Shown here: piece after piece, positions 1,686-8,598 of the stretch
How the letters are laid out: every line of letters starts with the position of its first letter
How positions within the stretch are numbered: the first letter of the stretch is position 1
Virus genome (UHGV): UHGV-0069955
Length of the DNA: 12,124 nucleotides
Strand: one strand, 5' to 3'
DNA from: a virus
The notes under the pieces: model-generated
The model's input: the letters and a program-made list of their open reading frames with translations, nothing else
Databases searched by the model: none
Told to the model about the DNA's origin: nothing
Made by a program: the position numbers and the translations under genes

Positions 1686-2165
1686 TTAAATTGCGTGAAT
1701 AGCGTGACGAGGGAAGGGGAGAGTTACTGGTTCCTCGTCTGGGTAGATAGGTTTGTTATGTTTGTGCCACTCGACATGGCATGACTTGCAGAGCCACATC
1801 ACATCGGTTGGTTTGCTGTAGTCGCAGTGGTGCGCCTGTGGTTTACATTCTGATCCGCAGCACTCACATTGTGGTGGTCGGATTAGCTTACCGTCGCGCA
1901 AAAAATTACCCACGATGATGTGGGCTTTTCTTTTCCATGGGTTGCTCTGAATGAACCGCTTTTTGGCTGCGTTACACCGTCCTCTGCCGCGTTCCGATGA
2001 TTGATATTCTCTCCTTGCTGATACTCGATGTGGCAATCCCGCGCGCTCTTTGTCGTATTCAGCCAGGCAAGCCCGGCAAGCGGCAGTTAATCCATCTCTG
2101 GATGCTCTTCTGATTTGAAAGTCCCTTTCTTCCTTCTGTTGATGGCATCTTGAGCAGATTTTCAT
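1686..2165 (-). CDS. HNH-family endonuclease with N-terminal Cys-rich (zinc-ribbon-like) region, 159 aa
   Basis: C-terminal ...AHHCDYSKPTDVMWLCKSCHVEWHKH fits the HNH motif (HH...D...LC..CH..H). N-terminal CSRCH...CRAC Cys pairs. AGGAG Shine-Dalgarno overlaps the SSB stop codon. Confidence 0.6.
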   Translation of the reverse strand: MKICSRCHQQKEERDFQIRRASRDGLTAACRACLAEYDKERAGLPHRVSARREYQSSERGRGRCNAAKKRFIQSNPWKRKAHIIVGNFLRDGKLIRPPQCECCGSECKPQAHHCDYSKPTDVMWLCKSCHVEWHKHNKPIYPDEEPVTLPFPRHAIHAI

Positions 2166-2174
2166 ATTCAGCTC

Positions 2175-2648
2175 CTAGAACGGAATATCCGAATCGTCGA
2201 AGTTCATAGGTGGTTCGCTGTGATTTCCATGCTGCTGAGGTTGCTGTCTTTGTTGCTGACCGTTATTTCGCTGAGGTGAAGACTGTTCATTGCCTCCTTG
2301 CTTGCCACCAAGCATTTGCATGGTTCCACCAACGCCCACGATGACTTCGGTAGTGAACCTATCCTGTCCGCTTTGATCCTGCCATTTTCTTGTCCGTAAT
2401 TTGCCTTCAAGATAAACCTCAGAGCCTTTTCGCAGATATTCGCTGGCAATTTCTGCCAGTTTCCCGCTCATTACCACACGGTGCCACTCCGTCTGCTCCT
2501 TTTGCTCTCCAGTTTGCTTATCACGCCATTGTTCTGACGTAGCAACTGTAAGGTTTGCAAATGCCGTTCCTGATGGTGAGTATCGAACTTCCGGGTCTTG
2601 TCCTACCCGACCAAGGATAATCACCTTATTTATCCCGCGAGAACTCAT
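2175..2648 (-). CDS. ssb: Single-stranded DNA-binding protein (SSB), 157 aa from ATG at 2648
   Basis: [27 protein letters not shown]...TEWHRVV...Gly/Gln-rich linker...C-terminal acidic tail DDSDIPF is the classic bacterial/phage SSB OB-fold and tail. The ATG overlaps the upstream HNH stop (ATGA). ORF track's 2657 start is an upstream GTG. Confidence 0.9.
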
Positions 2649-3112
2649 TTGCTCCACCTCTTGCCAGTTTTTATGTTGCTTATAATTGATTGAGATACAC
2701 CCATGTCTTTTGCTATCTTGTACTGACTCTCTTTTTCAGAGAGTCTTTTCCTAATTTCTATAACCTGCCACTCTGTTAATTTTGCACCATGATGAGCATG
2801 ACCTTTCTTGGCTCCACGATGCCTTCCTTTTGCTATCTTGTCGTCCATGTTTTCTTGCGCGCTACCTAAAAAGAGATGTTCAGGATTAACGCAGCATGGG
2901 TTATCGCATTTGTGGCAAACCATCTTCCCAGATGGAATGGGGGAGTGATAAAGCTCAAAAGCAACACGATGAGAAAGCATTGTTACGCCAAAGGCTACAA
3001 ATTTTGTGTATCCTCCTTTGTTTTTTGAATAGGTAGACTCCCAGCAACCTGTTGTTTCATTAACTTTGTAGCTGGACTCGAATCTTTTAATAATTCCGTC
3101 CAAGTGAGACAT
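2645..3112 (-). CDS. HNH endonuclease (HNH_3-type) with C-terminal helix-turn-helix, homing-endonuclease-like, 155 aa
   Basis: [17 protein letters not shown]...[12 protein letters not shown]...[26 protein letters not shown] is the HNH_3 signature. C-terminal [42 protein letters not shown] looks like an HTH. ATG directly follows the SSAP stop (TAAATG). Confidence 0.75.
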
Positions 3113-3820
3113 TTATGCCGCCTGTTTTAGTTCGTTAACTCTGATGTTCATTACCTGAACGCATTTAGCCTGCGCCTCCTCGTTGCCAGCCATTAATTGC
3201 CAGTCACGCTGATAACGCTCGATGAGTTTTTTCTTGTCAGTTTCTGTTGACGCATAATCGCTGAAGTCTTTCAGGATTTGTTCGCAGTCAACCGATGGAG
3301 ATTTCTGGTTGGTATTTTCTGGTGATGGTTTGTTATCTGATGCTGGGATTGCCCATCCAGGCAGCGATGGAGGGAGCCAGTAAAATCCTGTTCCATCCTT
3401 CAGTTTTGCCCTGTGCCACCCCTGCTTTTTATCGAGAGATGTTTGTGCAAAACCTTCCTCAAGGTTATACAGATACCGACCGATTCCCCACTGAACGGCA
3501 GCACGCTTCATTGCACCTGAACGACCACCTTTGACGGCTTCTACCTGCGTGTTTTCAGCAGCATCCCATTTGGTTACCCATTCGGAATCAATCTTGATTG
3601 ATATGCCGCATTCAACTCCGCCGTTGTTGGGAATATCGCGGTATTCATTGCGCCATCCTGCTTTGCCGCAAACATCGTCCAGGCGTTTCATGATTGCCCG
3701 GTTCGTGACATAAGCCAGCACCATAGCCCACACCTTGCCATCGCGTGTTTTACCGCTTTGCTGTATTCGCCATTCGATATCTTCAGGGCTGAATGGCTCA
3801 TCGAATTTGTTCAAATCCAT
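3113..3820 (-). CDS. Rad52-like single-strand annealing protein (phage recombinase, Sak-like), 235 aa
   Basis: ...GISIKIDSEWVTKWDAAENTQVEAVKGGRSGAMKRAAVQWGIGRYLYNLEEGF carries the KRAAV.(F/W)GIGRYLY hallmark I associate with phage Rad52/22-family SSAPs. Sits where lambda has bet. GAGGTG Shine-Dalgarno. Confidence 0.7.
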   Translation of the reverse strand: MDLNKFDEPFSPEDIEWRIQQSGKTRDGKVWAMVLAYVTNRAIMKRLDDVCGKAGWRNEYRDIPNNGGVECGISIKIDSEWVTKWDAAENTQVEAVKGGRSGAMKRAAVQWGIGRYLYNLEEGFAQTSLDKKQGWHRAKLKDGTGFYWLPPSLPGWAIPASDNKPSPENTNQKSPSVDCEQILKDFSDYASTETDKKKLIERYQRDWQLMAGNEEAQAKCVQVMNIRVNELKQAA

Positions 3821-4570: not shown

Positions 4571-5194
4571 CTATGCGGACTCGGAAGGAAGTCCAATCAT
4601 CTTATTCAAATCTTCTACCCGTAAAGCAGGAAGTGCTGTACTTGCTTTGTCTGCTTCTTTTGGTAGCAATTCTTTGCTTTCAGGCCAAACTTCAATAAGT
4701 CGCTTAACTGTTGTGACTGAGTTCAAAGCAGCCCATACATTTGATTCGATATCCTTTTTCTTGGCTTCAAGTTTTTGTTGCAATGCGCAGATTTCATCAA
4801 ACCTTTTTGTTATTTCGTGTTCTGCATCAAACATGCATTTATCTTTGGTTGGAGTAGGGAGCAATATATCTTCGCCGTTGCCGTCTTTCCCATATGAATG
4901 CCATCCAACCCTTCTGCCAGATACAGTCAGATAAATTGAAGTAGAACGAACATCGTATGAGTAAAATGAACATCCCATCTTTTCAAGTTCTTCACTTATA
5001 GCTACTAACCTGGATGATAACTGATCCACTTCCTCAGTTTTCTTTTTACCGCCAAACGCAATAACTCTGGCGTCAAGTGCAAGCTGGTTCTTTAACTTTG
5101 TTACTTCTTCAAGTTCAGTGAAAACCCCAGACTTAATTAAAGCGTTACGAGCGATTTTCTCTTTCATTCTCGTAGTTAAGCGGATTGATGACAT
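4571..5194 (-). CDS. Hypothetical low-GC accessory (moron) protein, 207 aa from ATG at 5194
   Basis: Strong GAGAGGAA Shine-Dalgarno 5 nt upstream of the ATG at 5194 (track's 5209 start is TTG). Visibly AT-rich relative to the lambda-like flanks. Translation MSSIRLTTRMKEKIARNALIKSG... is Lys/Glu-rich with no motif I recognise. Confidence 0.6.
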   Translation of the reverse strand: MSSIRLTTRMKEKIARNALIKSGVFTELEEVTKLKNQLALDARVIAFGGKKKTEEVDQLSSRLVAISEELEKMGCSFYSYDVRSTSIYLTVSGRRVGWHSYGKDGNGEDILLPTPTKDKCMFDAEHEITKRFDEICALQQKLEAKKKDIESNVWAALNSVTTVKRLIEVWPESKELLPKEADKASTALPALRVEDLNKMIGLPSESA

Positions 5195-5251
5195 ATTAAT
5201 TCCTCTCAAATAAGTGGTTTGCTGCGAAAGTAAATACGCTTAAGTTACCTG

Positions 5252-5389
5252 TTATTTATCCCACCAAGTTCCGTATCTATCTATCCAGTTACACCAATCA
5301 TCGACACTCCATTTTGTTGTGTCGCATTTTGGCAACTGGCATGAATATCTACCTTCTTTGTAAAGTCGGCGTTTGACTTTCTTGAGCAT
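5252..5389 (-). CDS. Small Cys/Trp-rich hypothetical protein, 45 aa (MLKKVKRRLYKEGRYSCQLPKCDTTKWSVDDWCNWIDRYGTWWDK)
   Basis: Not in the ORF track. ATG at 5389 with a GAGGTG Shine-Dalgarno that overlaps the N stop codon. Cys residues spaced in a zinc-ribbon-like pattern. Confidence 0.35.
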   Translation of the reverse strand: MLKKVKRRLYKEGRYSCQLPKCDTTKWSVDDWCNWIDRYGTWWDK

Positions 5390-5397
5390 GGCTCACC

Positions 5398-5730
5398 TCA
5401 ATCGTAATAAGCTGGAATTGATTTTCCGCGTTGCTTCTGGCGACCAACACAAGTCACACCCATTTCACTGCGTGGCTTGCTGTACCATGTGCGCTGATTC
5501 TTGCGTTCAATACGTTGCAGGTTGCTTTCAATCTGTTCGTGGTATTCAGCCAGCACCGTAAGGTCTATCGGATTCAGTGCGCTTTCTACTCGTGATTTCG
5601 GTTTGCGATTCAGCGAGAGAATAGGGCGGTTAACTGGTTTTGCGCTTACCCCAACCAACAGGGGATTTGCTGCTTTCCATTGAGCCTGTTTCTCTGCGCG
5701 ACGTTCGCGGCGGCGTGCTTGTGCATCCAT
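5398..5730 (-). CDS. N: Antitermination protein N (lambda-type), 110 aa from ATG at 5730
   Basis: MDAQARRRERRAEKQAQWKAANPLLVGVSAKPVNRPILSLNRKPKSRVESALNPIDLTVLAEYHEQIESNLQRIERKNQRTWYSKP... is near-identical to lambda N as I recall it, including the Arg-rich boxB-binding motif. AGGAG Shine-Dalgarno upstream. Track's 5820 start is an upstream extension. Confidence 0.92.
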   Translation of the reverse strand: MDAQARRRERRAEKQAQWKAANPLLVGVSAKPVNRPILSLNRKPKSRVESALNPIDLTVLAEYHEQIESNLQRIERKNQRTWYSKPRSEMGVTCVGRQKQRGKSIPAYYD

Positions 5731-5840
5731 CTGGATTCTCCTGTCAGTTAGCTTTGAGTAACGCGCCGTGATGCTTATCTCCACGGTTGCTGTCTTGCAG
5801 CTGCATTTCGCGCTACTCAAAGCTTTCTGCTTTGAATGCC

Positions 5841-5871
5841 GCCCTTCTTCAGGGCTAAATTTTTAAGAGCC
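5841..5871 (-). promoter_or_regulatory. nutL: nutL (boxB 5841-5855, boxA 5863-5871)
   Basis: Minus strand reads GCTCTTAAAAATTTAGCCCTGAAGAAGGGC: boxA-like GCTCTTA plus the boxB hairpin GCCCTGAAGAAGGGC, matching lambda nutL as recalled. Confidence 0.8.
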
Positions 5872-5904
5872 TCACCTTCAATGGTGGTTAGTGCGTCCTG
5901 CTGA

Positions 5905-5974
5905 TGTGCTTAGTATCACCGCCAGTGGTATTTATGTCAACACCGCCAGAGATAATTTATCACCGCAGATGGTT
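5905..5974 (-). promoter_or_regulatory. pL promoter with operators OL1 (5914-5930), OL2 (5938-5954), OL3 (5958-5974)
   Basis: Three 17-bp operator half-site pairs: tatcaccgccagtggta, caacaccgccagagata, tatcaccgcagatggtt. On the minus strand, -35 TTGACA (complement of 5935-5940) and -10 GATACT (complement of 5912-5917) are 17 bp apart. Confidence 0.8.
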
Positions 5975-6126
5975 ATCTGTATGTTTTTTATATAGATTTA
6001 TTTTTTTGCAGGGTTGTGTGGATTGGGAAGGTGATCGAGAGATCTGAATTGCGATGTTTAGTGAGTTGTATCTATTAATTTTGAAATAAATACAATTGGT
6101 TATGCGTTTTTTGGGGGATCGTGAGG

Positions 6127-6155
6127 CAAAGAAAACCCGGCGCTGAGGCCGGGTT
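6127..6155 (-). terminator. Rho-independent terminator of the cI-linked leftward transcript (timm-like)
   Basis: aacccggc (6134-6141) / gccgggtt (6148-6155) GC-rich stem, followed on the minus strand by TTTTCTTTG. Lies 11 nt downstream of the stop of the 118-aa gene. Confidence 0.6.
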
Positions 6156-6165
6156 GTGTAGATTC

Positions 6166-6522
6166 TTAGTGAGGTAGTGATGGCATCATTTTTATTATTA
6201 ACCCAACACCAGTTCCAACGGCTGCAAGAACTGAACCAATAATAGCCATGGCTTGGAGTCTCATTGCGCTGTGAAGTTCTGCTTTTGCATTAGCTATGTC
6301 TGTTTTAACAGATTCTACATTGGCAGATGTTGCATAGTTAGACTTAATTACAGCGATGTCGGTCGCCATGGTTGCGACTTTATCTTCAAGAATTTTTATG
6401 CGCTGTAACATGTCACCACCTCCACCGTTACCACCACCATATGTCTCATCATTATGGTGGTTATGTGGAAAATTATCAACTTTACTCCTGTCAAGAGGCA
6501 CAGCGTACAGATGTCGTTTCAT
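6166..6522 (-). CDS. Hypothetical tail-anchored membrane protein, 118 aa (gene B of the cI-linked cassette)
   Basis: N-terminal His/Gly-rich low-complexity stretch (NFPHNHHNDETYGGGNGGGGD), central amphipathic/coiled-coil-like segment (MLQRIKILEDKVATMATDIAVIKSNYATSANVESVKTDIANAKAELHSAMRLQ), and one C-terminal hydrophobic helix (AMAIIGSVLAAVGTGVGLIIKMM). ATG at 6522 overlaps the gene A stop (ATGA). Confidence 0.55.
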   Translation of the reverse strand: MKRHLYAVPLDRSKVDNFPHNHHNDETYGGGNGGGGDMLQRIKILEDKVATMATDIAVIKSNYATSANVESVKTDIANAKAELHSAMRLQAMAIIGSVLAAVGTGVGLIIKMMPSLPH

Positions 6523-6959
6523 TCCTTATCTCTGTTCGGGGTGGTTGAAATAAGAGCGCATTTTTTTTCATCAATAACTTCGCTAAGATTACCATCAATG
6601 TCTTCAAAGATGCGATAAATTATGTCATATGTTCCTGTTTCTATAAGTTTGATGTTTTTAACGAAAAGATATGTGCCAACCACAACATATTTTTCATTGA
6701 CAGGAGAAAACATAAATGTTTGCAGTTGCTCTTGATTGCTAGAGATATCAGGTAAAACCGATTCTCCATTGAATACGACATCAAGTTCGGTAGTGTATTT
6801 TTTTTCGTGCTCGAAGTACATTATTGCAGTTAGGTAAAATGAGCCGGAACAAGGGTATTCTTCCGACACTATTATAGGATCTGGTGTCATAAAAGGAGTG
6901 ATTGCCAGCCCGGGTTTTACCGCCGTTGTGTAGATTGTTATTATTTTTTCTTCTCTCAT
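6519..6959 (-). CDS. Hypothetical soluble protein, 146 aa (gene A of the cI-linked cassette)
   Basis: ATG at 6959 with an AAGGA Shine-Dalgarno; starts 18 nt after the cI stop codon, so probably co-transcribed with cI. Very AT-rich coding sequence. No hydrophobic helix; beta-rich-looking composition. Confidence 0.6.
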   Translation of the reverse strand: MREEKIITIYTTAVKPGLAITPFMTPDPIIVSEEYPCSGSFYLTAIMYFEHEKKYTTELDVVFNGESVLPDISSNQEQLQTFMFSPVNEKYVVVGTYLFVKNIKLIETGTYDIIYRIFEDIDGNLSEVIDEKKCALISTTPNRDKE

Positions 6960-6977
6960 GAAGATATTTCCTTAAAA

Positions 6978-7694
<717 letters not shown>

Positions 7695-7701
7695 TTAAAT
7701 C

Positions 7702-7767
7702 TATCACCGCGAGGGATAAATATCTAACACCGTGCGTGTTGACTATTTTACCTCTAGCGGTGATAAT
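7702..7767. promoter_or_regulatory. Right operator/promoter region: OR3 (7702-7718), OR2 (7725-7741), OR1 (7749-7765), with pR (+) and pRM (-)
   Basis: tatcaccgcgagggata, taacaccgtgcgtgttg, tacctctagcggtgata. pR -35 ttgact (7739-7744) and -10 gataat (7762-7767) are 17 bp apart. cro Shine-Dalgarno aaggagg lies at 7780-7786. Confidence 0.85.
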
Positions 7768-7782
7768 GGTTGCATGTACTAA

Positions 7783-7992
<210 letters not shown>

Positions 7993-7999
7993 ATAACCC

Positions 8000-8031
8000 C
8001 GCTCTTACACATCCCAGCCCTGAAAAAGGGC
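8000..8031 (+). promoter_or_regulatory. nutR: nutR (boxA 8000-8009, boxB 8017-8031)
   Basis: cgctcttaca (boxA) then gccctgaaaaagggc (boxB hairpin), immediately downstream of cro. Confidence 0.8.
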
Positions 8032-8094
8032 ATCAAATTAAACCACACCTATGGTGTATGCATTTATTTGCATACATTCAATCAATTGTTATCT

Positions 8095-8140
8095 AAGGAA
8101 ATACTTACATATGGTTCGTGCAAACAAACGCAACGAGGCT
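8095..8140 (-). promoter_or_regulatory. pRE-like CII-dependent promoter (leftward) spanning the cII start
   Basis: Minus strand carries TTGCGTTTGTTTGC (complement of 8120-8133), the TTGC-N6-TTGC CII-binding direct repeat at -35, as in lambda pRE. Confidence 0.55.
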
Positions 8141-8404
8141 CTACGAATCGAGAGTGCGTTGCTTAACAAAATCGCAATGCTTGGAACTGAGAAGACAGCG
8201 GAAGCTGTGGGAGTTGATAAGTCGCAGATCAGCAGGTGGAAGAGGGATTGGATTCCAAAGTTCTCAATGCTGCTTGCTGTTCTTGAATGGGGTGTCGTTG
8301 ACGACGACATGGCTCGATTGGCACGACAAGTTGCTTCGATTCTCACCAATAAAAAACGCCCGGCGGCAACCGAGCGTTCTGAACAAATCCAGATGGAATT
8401 CTGA
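8111..8404 (+). CDS. cII: CII transcriptional activator (lambda-type), 97 aa from ATG at 8111
   Basis: MVRANKRNEALRIESALLNKIAMLGTEKTAEAVGVDKSQISRWKRDWIPKFSMLLAVLEWGVVDDDMARLARQVASILTNKKRPAATERSEQIQMEF matches lambda CII. Track's 8051 start is an upstream extension. Confidence 0.92.
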   Translation: MVRANKRNEALRIESALLNKIAMLGTEKTAEAVGVDKSQISRWKRDWIPKFSMLLAVLEWGVVDDDMARLARQVASILTNKKRPAATERSEQIQMEF

Positions 8405-8426
8405 GGTCATTACTGGATCAATCCAC
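8350..8426 (-). ncRNA. oop: oop-like antisense RNA overlapping the cII 3' end
   Basis: Region 8350-8426 closely matches the complement of lambda oop RNA as recalled; its 3' end is a GC-rich hairpin (8357-8376) followed on the minus strand by TTTTTTAT. Exact ends inferred by analogy with lambda. Confidence 0.5.
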
Positions 8427-8436
8427 AGGAGTAATT

Positions 8437-8598
8437 ATGACAAAACGTCGTAAGAAATACCAGGAAAAAGAAGAGATTCGACACCCTGATTCACCTGAGG
8501 GATTAGTGGTAGCCGCAGCAAATAACAGGGCGTTCGCAGAGCGCCTTGTTGGTGTTTACAGACTAGCCAAAGCAGGAGTGAAACATGGGCGTCGTTAA
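8437..8598 (+). CDS. Small basic hypothetical protein, 53 aa ([53 protein letters not shown])
   Basis: Not in the ORF track. ATG at 8437 with an AGGAG Shine-Dalgarno, in the position where lambda O starts. Its 3' end overlaps the O start by 14 nt in another frame. Confidence 0.35.
   Translation: MTKRRKKYQEKEEIRHPDSPEGLVVAAANNRAFAERLVGVYRLAKAGVKHGRR

Follow-up and report, generated by a model that had tools for sequence, protein, structure and literature searches.

A candidate two-gene exclusion cassette in the rexAB position of a lambdoid prophage

RexAB of phage lambda was found about 70 years ago just downstream of the repressor gene cI, and its mechanism is still unresolved. In lambda, rexB is also driven by the promoter pLIT. 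The cI-proximal slot is occupied in phage 933W by the kinase gene stk, and wild phages with lambda immunity were reportedly sequenced by Degnan et al. in 2007. The interval between cI and N is a mosaic hotspot, with rexAB in lambda and bstA in phage BTP1, and RexB in excess silences the Rex system (PMC8585504). Descriptions exist of five Rex-type pairs, each with a cytosolic and a membrane protein (PMC12894663). Here we report on a cassette of two genes, A and B, that stands in the exact place of rexAB in a stretch of 12,124 nucleotides (nt) of the virus genome UHGV-0069955 (below, the window). The pair is a good candidate for a new anti-phage system, a role that we infer from its position and architecture. 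Because prophage pairs of a cytosolic and a membrane protein next to the repressor are a known kind and the slot is a recognised hotspot, new genes at this place will not astonish the specialist. What is new are the protein families A and B, a zinc-ribbon partner of B, the minimal tail-anchored coiled-coil design predicted for B, the exchange of a partner together with a peptide of B, and a conserved, predicted dual start.

The cassette and its position in the window

The window covers the early region of a lambdoid prophage, whose immunity is that of lambda. Comparison with lambda by blastn gave one block on each side of the cassette, with window 5818-6155 corresponding to lambda 35496-35826 and window 6977-8444 to lambda 37226-38693. 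Because homology ends at 6155 and restarts at 6977, lambda 35827-37225 (1.4 kb, with rexB, rexA and a spacer), which is absent from the window, has been replaced exactly by the 821-bp cassette at 6156-6976. The left junction (6155/6156) falls at lambda 35826, in the region of the rexB stop codon, and the right junction (6976/6977) at lambda 37226, one base before the cI stop. The cassette thus lies between cI and the terminator timm and is co-oriented with cI, which is the RexAB position. The features of the locus are the following.

6978-7691, minus strand: cI repressor gene (lambda immunity), an open reading frame of 237 amino acids (aa) with matches to Peptidase_S24 (1e-28) and HTH_3; first gene of a predicted pRM/pRE transcript into A and B
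6960-6977, minus strand: cI-A spacer of 18 nt with AAGGA and the right junction with lambda, from reading of the sequence and the break in lambda homology
6519-6959, minus strand: gene A, 146 aa, predicted cytoplasmic immunoglobulin (Ig)-like beta-sandwich; proposed specificity or sensor subunit
6166-6522, minus strand: gene B, long form, 118 aa, predicted tail-anchored coiled-coil membrane protein (open reading frame, AlphaFold2 model, 67 homologues)
6439-6522, minus strand: B residues 1-28, N-terminal segment, variable and changing with the type of A; putative docking peptide
6412-6438, minus strand: B residues 29-37, Gly run GGGNGGGGD, from family alignment and codon analysis; putative flexible linker and likely recombination joint
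6166-6411, minus strand: 81-aa short form of B with the coiled coil and transmembrane (TM) helix, predicted to start at Met38 (ATG 6411-6409) from a conserved start and Shine-Dalgarno-like sequence
6319-6336, minus strand: B residues 63-68, YATSAN, beta-layer-type motif within the coiled coil, from a profile match to PDB 5apz
6187-6249, minus strand: B residues 92-112, predicted single C-terminal TM helix, rich in small residues (GSVLAAVGTGVG), from Kyte-Doolittle hydropathy and within model helix 66-112
6124-6155, minus strand: intrinsic terminator (lambda timm), 8-pair stem and T tract, homologous to lambda 35771-35826
5912-5940, minus strand: pL promoter TTGACA-17-GATACT, within the stretch of homology to lambda OL/pL; end marker of the immunity-operon slot

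The stop codon of cI (TGA, 6980-6978) and the start codon of gene A (ATG, 6959-6957) are separated by 18 nt, in which a Shine-Dalgarno sequence (AAGGA, 6973-6969) lies 9 nt ahead of the ATG. The stop of A overlaps the start of B in an ATGA at 6522-6519. The terminator is lambda's own timm, which has been kept (stem 6155-6134 followed by TTCTTTG; folding energy -15.2 kcal/mol, z -2.86). It is the sole minus-strand terminator after gene B, and none was predicted between cI and timm. The cassette is without a promoter and terminator of its own and borrows pRM and timm. Lambda biology leads us to expect both proteins in lysogens, because pRM and pRE are intact, in a cI-cro-cII region that is 98% identical to lambda 37226-38693, and no predicted terminator intervenes before timm. 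A first-pass annotation of this DNA had proposed the own Shine-Dalgarno of A 18 nt after the cI stop, the ATGA overlap of a 146-aa with a 118-aa gene, a GC hairpin and T tract closing the pair before OL/pL, the cI-rexA-rexB-timm arrangement, co-transcription with cI and acquisition of AT-rich coding DNA from elsewhere. The sequence details were all borne out by our analysis, which also supports an operon layout with cI and gives signs of the acquisition.

The GC content of the cassette is 0.384 (0.363 in A and 0.415 in B) compared with 0.466 for the window, and it is the third lowest among 1131 segments of 821 bp. At third codon positions, the GC content is 0.33 in A and 0.30 in B compared with 0.445 in cI. 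In E. coli, a 99.9-100% identical cassette adjoins two different repressors. In one of these strains, ECONIH5, the stop codon of the other repressor and the spacer ahead of gene A are separated by a 30-nt remnant of lambda cI, from its 3' end and with one substitution (L002, about 6867-6896). This stub therefore indicates that the cassette moved as a unit together with a piece of cI. The low GC, the identical copies beside two repressors and the cI stub are signs of horizontal acquisition. With its deviant GC, identical copies beside two repressors and a family found behind at least 10 repressor types, the cassette has the features of an accessory gene module of the kind called a moron.

The two protein families and their partners

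Homologues were counted with a word-indexed search and, for A, with an exhaustive profile search covering 1.84 billion representatives. The former returned 27 homologues of A and 67 of B. The latter returned 59 A-family proteins, nearly all of 143-153 aa and stand-alone. Homologues of both proteins extend down to 15-40% identity with length and order conserved. Neither protein matches a family of Pfam or NCBIfam, and no match at E<=1e-3 came from tblastn of both against 50,697 phage records of GenBank. B matches only PHROGs of function unknown (phrog_6324 at 1e-11), and the best viral matches of A are uncharacterised phage proteins of similar size. We found no paper on the RefSeq accessions WP_001549084 and WP_001549085. 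This agrees with the first-pass annotation, which recognised neither protein. As annotation of the two genes goes no further than 'hypothetical protein', one might suppose that A and B are chance open frames in AT-rich filler DNA. However, the distant homologues of conserved length and order, the confident fold predicted for A, the variation at third codon positions within the conserved Gly run of B and the synteny of the pair in six genera already refute this idea, and its probability is negligible. Judged from this conservation, A and B are real, uncharacterised genes.

A was modelled by AlphaFold as an all-beta protein of eight strands (predicted local distance difference test, pLDDT, 84; predicted template modelling score, pTM, 0.78). 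The model is a two-sheet sandwich with a strand number in the range of Ig-like domains (7-9) and with structural matches to them, and the A-family profile weakly matches titin Ig domains (E 0.0025). Only three columns are invariant or nearly so across the wide A family, namely Tyr10, Pro26 and Gly109. No signal peptide and no hydrophobic segment were found in A. On account of these features and of the all-beta Ig-like model, A looks like a cytoplasmic binding module and not an enzyme. This agrees with the first-pass description of A as soluble and beta-rich.

The AlphaFold2 monomer model of B has residues 1-35 disordered, followed by helices at 36-63 and 66-112. Its hydrophobic maximum lies at residues 92-110 (Kyte-Doolittle 2.23 over 19 residues) and is the sole segment of this kind, so that the coiled coil with a single C-terminal TM helix read earlier from the sequence reappears in the model. 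Because B has no signal peptide, has a cytoplasmic partner and carries its only TM helix at the C-terminus, it would be tail-anchored with its bulk in the cytoplasm, and it is probably trimeric. Kinship of the pair with RexA and RexB, to which the first-pass annotation had seen no resemblance either, was rejected for want of similarity in sequence or fold. BLASTP of B against RexB gave no match, and B has one hydrophobic segment, not the four TM helices of polytopic RexB; likewise, A is neither a homologue of RexA nor of its DNA-binding dimer fold.

Alignment of the B family shows four parts: the variable residues 1-28, a near-invariant GGGNGGGGD(D), a conserved core (M-L-x-R-V-K-x-L-E ... D-I-A-V-I-K-S-N-Y-A-T-K-x-D) and a TM helix of several types. 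The His/Gly-rich N-terminus noted in the first-pass annotation is present to the letter (HNHHNDETYGGGNGGGGD), but its His-rich part belongs to the variable segment that tracks the partner and is not a conserved feature. The B-family profile matches PDB 5apz (GCN4-Tcar0761) at E 5e-6, with 'snyatkedv' on 'NMATKDDL'. The beta-layer motif in this alignment, [aliphatic]-A-T-K-[polar]-[DE], forms a short beta element in trimeric coiled coils and occurs as well in integral membrane proteins of the DUF1640 type (Hartmann et al. 2016, PMC4786415). The family consensus of B is YATK(E/S/T)D, with Tyr at position 1, compared with MATKDD in Tcar0761; the copy in the window is a variant, YATSAN, which makes B no more than a possible member of this class. 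The helix break in the AlphaFold2 model, at residues 64-65, coincides with A-T of the motif. No significant Pfam match to PF07798 (DUF1640) was obtained, with two of 47 B relatives at E 0.15.

We scored all open reading frames of IMG/VR loci (80 fetched with B alone and 5 with A alone) with purpose-built hidden Markov models. B overlaps A or abuts just after it for every one of the 38 distinct A genes. In 32 of these 38, a repressor-like gene stands directly before A on the same strand, and at least 10 clusters (<50% identity) are represented among these repressors. The six exceptions include a locus in which IS2 cuts gene A. The order repressor, A, B on one strand was also seen in annotated prophages of Salmonella, Enterobacter, E. 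coli (Rac-like), Serratia, Pantoea and Pectobacterium.

We then compared each pair with that of the window. Where A is 43-79% identical, the N-terminus of B (MKRHLY.VPLD..VEQ..PHN) is kept, although the C-termini of these B proteins are of at least five unrelated types. By contrast, in L028 and L029 the core and C-terminus of B are 97% and 94% identical to those of the window, whereas A is only 23% and the N-terminus of B only 21% identical. No A was detectable beside 28 of the 56 distinct IMG/VR B genes. About 20 of the B genes without A are preceded by a different protein of 87-131 aa, which has two CxxC pairs, is zinc-ribbon-like and belongs to no Pfam family (for example, L061:3561-4216 and L095:3514-4213). 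Some of these zinc-ribbon-B pairs lie behind repressors; others belong to a moron island that directly precedes the tape-measure gene, in some cases with lipoprotein genes next to them. The simplest reading of these patterns is that the partner and the N-terminal peptide of B form a specificity unit, that the Gly run serves as a linker and recombination joint, and that the coiled coil and TM helix form a shared membrane unit.

A lipoprotein as an obligatory third component was considered and set aside, because no more than 5 of 20 zinc-ribbon-type loci have one. Other B-like genes have different surroundings. In L055 (3087-4354), a 298-aa protein with a B-like domain (phrog_3556 type) adjoins the gene of a Rap1a-family immunity protein (E 6e-17). 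In the metagenome contigs L109 (2686-4288) and L110 (1428-3046), the neighbours of a 120-aa B-like gene are a YecR lipoprotein gene and two pairs of the toxin-antitoxin kind (Gp49/HigB with HTH_37; UPF0175), which resembles a defence island.

Gene B very probably yields two products, the 118-aa form coupled to A by the ATGA and an 81-aa form from an internal start. In the window, GGAGGT at 6423-6418, which encodes two Gly residues (GGA GGT), lies 6 nt ahead of the Met38 codon. Among 71 distinct B genes of the fetched loci, the internal start codon is ATG in 67 and GTG in 4, with a Shine-Dalgarno-like sequence 6-8 nt upstream in 57. The codon at -4 to the conserved Met is GGA in 58 of 65 genes and that at -3 is GGT in 42 of 61, whereas the share of GGA at the Gly codons -8 and -5 of the same run is only 6-10%. 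Elsewhere in the Gly run, variation is seen at third codon positions. Upstream of Met38 the frame is open in 38 of 38 distinct pairs, and the long form is therefore expected to be translated as well. The predicted 81-aa form is without the partner-specific peptide and equals the free-standing chromosomal genes discussed below. A promoter-like sequence (TTGATA-17-CATAAT, 6451-6479, minus strand) lies within B, in its 5' part and ahead of the internal start. We set it aside as an analogue of pLIT because promoter-like matches in the region are not above chance (4 compared with 4.9 expected).

Proposed function and alternatives

In the reading that we prefer, A and B are a two-gene moron module that is made with the repressor in the lysogen and would exclude superinfecting phages by a Rex-like logic; we consider the chances for and against it to be about equal. 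Transcripts from pRM (and pRE) would run through cI, A and B to timm, so that both proteins are present in lysogens. B would be a trimer, tail-anchored in the membrane and for the most part cytoplasmic, and A would dock on the N-terminal peptide of long B. A would recognise a component of the infecting phage by protein-protein contact, and this recognition would alter the assembly state of B, such that the inner membrane is damaged or depolarised and the infection aborted. The short form of B may co-assemble with the long form and set the threshold, in analogy to excess RexB or an antiholin. The step of membrane damage is less certain than the defence role itself. The first-pass annotation had suggested a small sensor and a membrane effector made by the lysogen. 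Our analysis supports that interpretation in part, in what it says of the slot, the operon layout, the signs of acquisition and the architecture; the exclusion role itself is drawn from architecture and from position, with the known occupants of the slot. The obligate pairing and the repressor-proximal position across at least 10 repressor types strengthen the interpretation indirectly, as does the modular shuffling in the style of sensors and effectors.

Several observations weigh against an exclusion system. At the DNA level, the cassette is rare, with occurrence in 4 of 5426 complete E. coli genomes. It is also dispensable, because in one of these four (E. coli C 236-04A) IS2 cuts the 5' end of gene A (L003, 6776-8250) and parts A and B from the repressor gene and the promoter. 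No family for A or B is present in PADLOC-DB 2.0.0 (2023) at E<=1. A shows no signature of an enzyme or of nucleic-acid binding, and it has generic fold matches. Three TM helices per trimer are few for a pore, and B could be a mere anchor. The docking of A on the B peptide stays an inference, because adjacency on the DNA (physical linkage) could give the same co-variation by itself. Lastly, orphan 78-aa genes for the B core alone (coiled coil plus TM helix) lie on the chromosome, flanked by a DUF903 gene and TerC/mutH (L014-L016, 5001-5237), outside prophages and without the N-terminal segment or a partner gene. These orphans hint at a housekeeping role for the core domain.

The orphans, together with the rarity and dispensability of the cassette and the lack of a match to any catalogued defence protein, would fit a function other than defence, such as lysogenic conversion or prophage physiology (modulation of the host membrane or of stress, or adjustment of the prophage's own induction or time of lysis). 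Morons often serve purposes other than defence. On the other hand, the characterised slot occupants named here are defence genes, namely stk of 933W and, as given in PMC8585504, rexAB and bstA, and swapping of sensors is typical of arms-race systems and not of housekeeping; we regard a non-defence function as unlikely, with a weight that is still appreciable. If the cassette does act in defence, it might also do so without harm to the cell. The B trimer could merely anchor A at the cytoplasmic face of the inner membrane, where A, by binding a host entry factor or else an ejection or tape-measure protein, would block genome delivery. The position and the logic of lysogenic expression fit this as they fit abortive infection, A is an Ig-like domain of the binding type without a catalytic motif, and B is more like a trimeric anchor or stalk than a channel. 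The zinc-ribbon-B pairs beside lipoprotein genes upstream of tape-measure genes are in a typical place for exclusion morons. However, known entry blockers are usually single polytopic or periplasm-exposed proteins, whereas A and B are both predicted to face the cytoplasm, and the conserved, predicted second isoform of B and its weak XhlA-like signal fit a regulated membrane effector better. We consider an entry block rather improbable.

The XhlA-like signal also raises the idea that B is an XhlA-type accessory, with A as its regulator, for lysis of the phage's own host. XhlA is a membrane protein required for PBSX lysis (PMC6834076; PMC5589764), and in PBSX the gene of a beta-sandwich protein, xepA, is in the direct vicinity of xhlA (PMC6834076), which recalls A beside B. 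Some relatives of B are named 'hemolysin XhlA' by NCBI, 7 of 47 weakly match XhlA (PF10779; best E 2.3e-4, all below threshold), the model of B shares with XhlA a coiled-coil N-terminal part and one C-terminal TM helix, and the predicted dual start recalls holin/antiholin pairs. By contrast, B of the window has no PF10779 match at E<=1, and the best relative is far under the gathering score (cut-off 34.7 bits; P0092 has 15.8 bits), so that the similarity falls short of the clear homology to a lysis protein that the first-pass annotation would have taken as a refutation. In the window, A and B belong to the immunity operon (pRM/pRE and not a late promoter), with cI, OL/pL and N as neighbours, as in related loci, and no holin or endolysin gene nearby; moreover, what they replace is rexAB and not a lysis gene. 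We found nothing in the literature on XhlA together with abortive infection. A lysis function is very improbable on this evidence.

Exclusion of superinfecting phages remains the reading we favour. A bolder version of it is that A-B founds a widespread modular family of prophage defence, with a trimeric tail-anchored coiled-coil effector, of which one gene makes two isoforms through the conserved internal start, and interchangeable Ig-like or zinc-ribbon sensors that act through an exchanged docking peptide. We advance this tentatively and rather doubt that all of it will hold. In the exact slot of RexAB, the cassette places another pair of a soluble and a membrane protein, unrelated to the first and much smaller. 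It is tractable, with a delimited partner-specific peptide, a family-wide membrane module, naturally swapped sensors and a predicted second isoform, and with it one could ask how a minimal membrane effector is turned on by a cytoplasmic sensor. Should its role in defence hold, current defence catalogues miss three new families (A, B and the zinc-ribbon partner), and many uncharacterised B-type genes in Enterobacterales prophages would be suggested as immune genes.

Neighbouring genes and comparison with known systems

To the right of the cassette and cI, the window has cro (7792-7992), an O-type replication gene and a DnaB-type helicase gene. To the left is N (about 5398-5718, minus strand), followed by P22-like recombination genes: Rad52-type (3113-3820), SSB (2175-2657) and anti-RecBCD Abc2 (1376-1672). 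Interleaved with these are an HNH_3 endonuclease gene (2645-3112, minus strand) and a Cys-rich 159-aa open reading frame without a Pfam family (1686-2165, minus strand). Homology to lambda N ends at 5474, and the C-terminal ~25 residues of N (5398-5474, minus strand) diverge, which marks a mosaic junction within the gene. In the pL operon, where lambda has ral and sieB, there is another low-GC gene pair (window 4571-5389, minus strand), coding for a 212-aa Nmad5 'nucleotide modification associated domain 5' protein (E 4e-72) and a 45-aa DUF5484 protein; PADLOC gave no match for either. A scan of the window with Rfam gave no match.

Among known systems, the closest are lambda RexAB and the other Rex-type pairs (Sbash gp30/31, CarolAnn gp43/44, Butters gp30/31 and P. 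putida RexABpp; PMC12894663), which share with the cassette the two-gene operon with the cytosolic protein first and the membrane protein second. The cassette has the slot of lambda RexAB, after the cI stop and before timm, OL and pL, and like RexAB it is presumably expressed in lysogens from pRM. Both may have a built-in means to change effector stoichiometry, by pLIT-driven rexB in lambda and by the internal start of B in the cassette. They differ in that A is a 146-aa predicted Ig-like sandwich and RexA a 279-aa DNA-binding dimer, in that B has one C-terminal TM helix on a coiled coil and RexB four TM helices, and in total length (0.8 kb compared with 1.4 kb). BstA of the Salmonella prophage BTP1 (PMC8585504) is likewise encoded directly downstream of the repressor, presumably under its promoter, with a position conserved across genera. 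By contrast, it is one large DNA-associated protein of the cytoplasm and comes with aba, a DNA element for self-immunity. Its sequence is unrelated to A and B.

For B itself, three further comparisons can be drawn. XhlA of Bacillus PBSX is another small protein in which a coiled coil at the N-terminus is followed by one C-terminal TM helix, but B has an additional N-terminal peptide and Gly run and occurs outside lysis cassettes, in Gram-negative lambdoid prophages. DUF1640-type beta-layer proteins have in common with B the order of head segment, coiled-coil stalk and C-terminal TM anchor, and the motif of B lies in a heptad coiled coil and aligns with MATKDD of Tcar0761; B is much shorter and has Tyr in place of an aliphatic residue at position 1. 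The lambda gene for S105/S107 is a dual-start holin/antiholin gene. Like it, B has two in-frame starts for membrane products that differ only at the N-terminus, and the second start of B has its own conserved Shine-Dalgarno. However, the two forms of B would differ by 37 residues and not 2, with one C-terminal TM helix, translational coupling to A probably yields the long form, and B lies outside the late operon. Were the cassette to act instead by blocking entry, it would resemble P22 SieA, T4 Imm and HK97 gp15.

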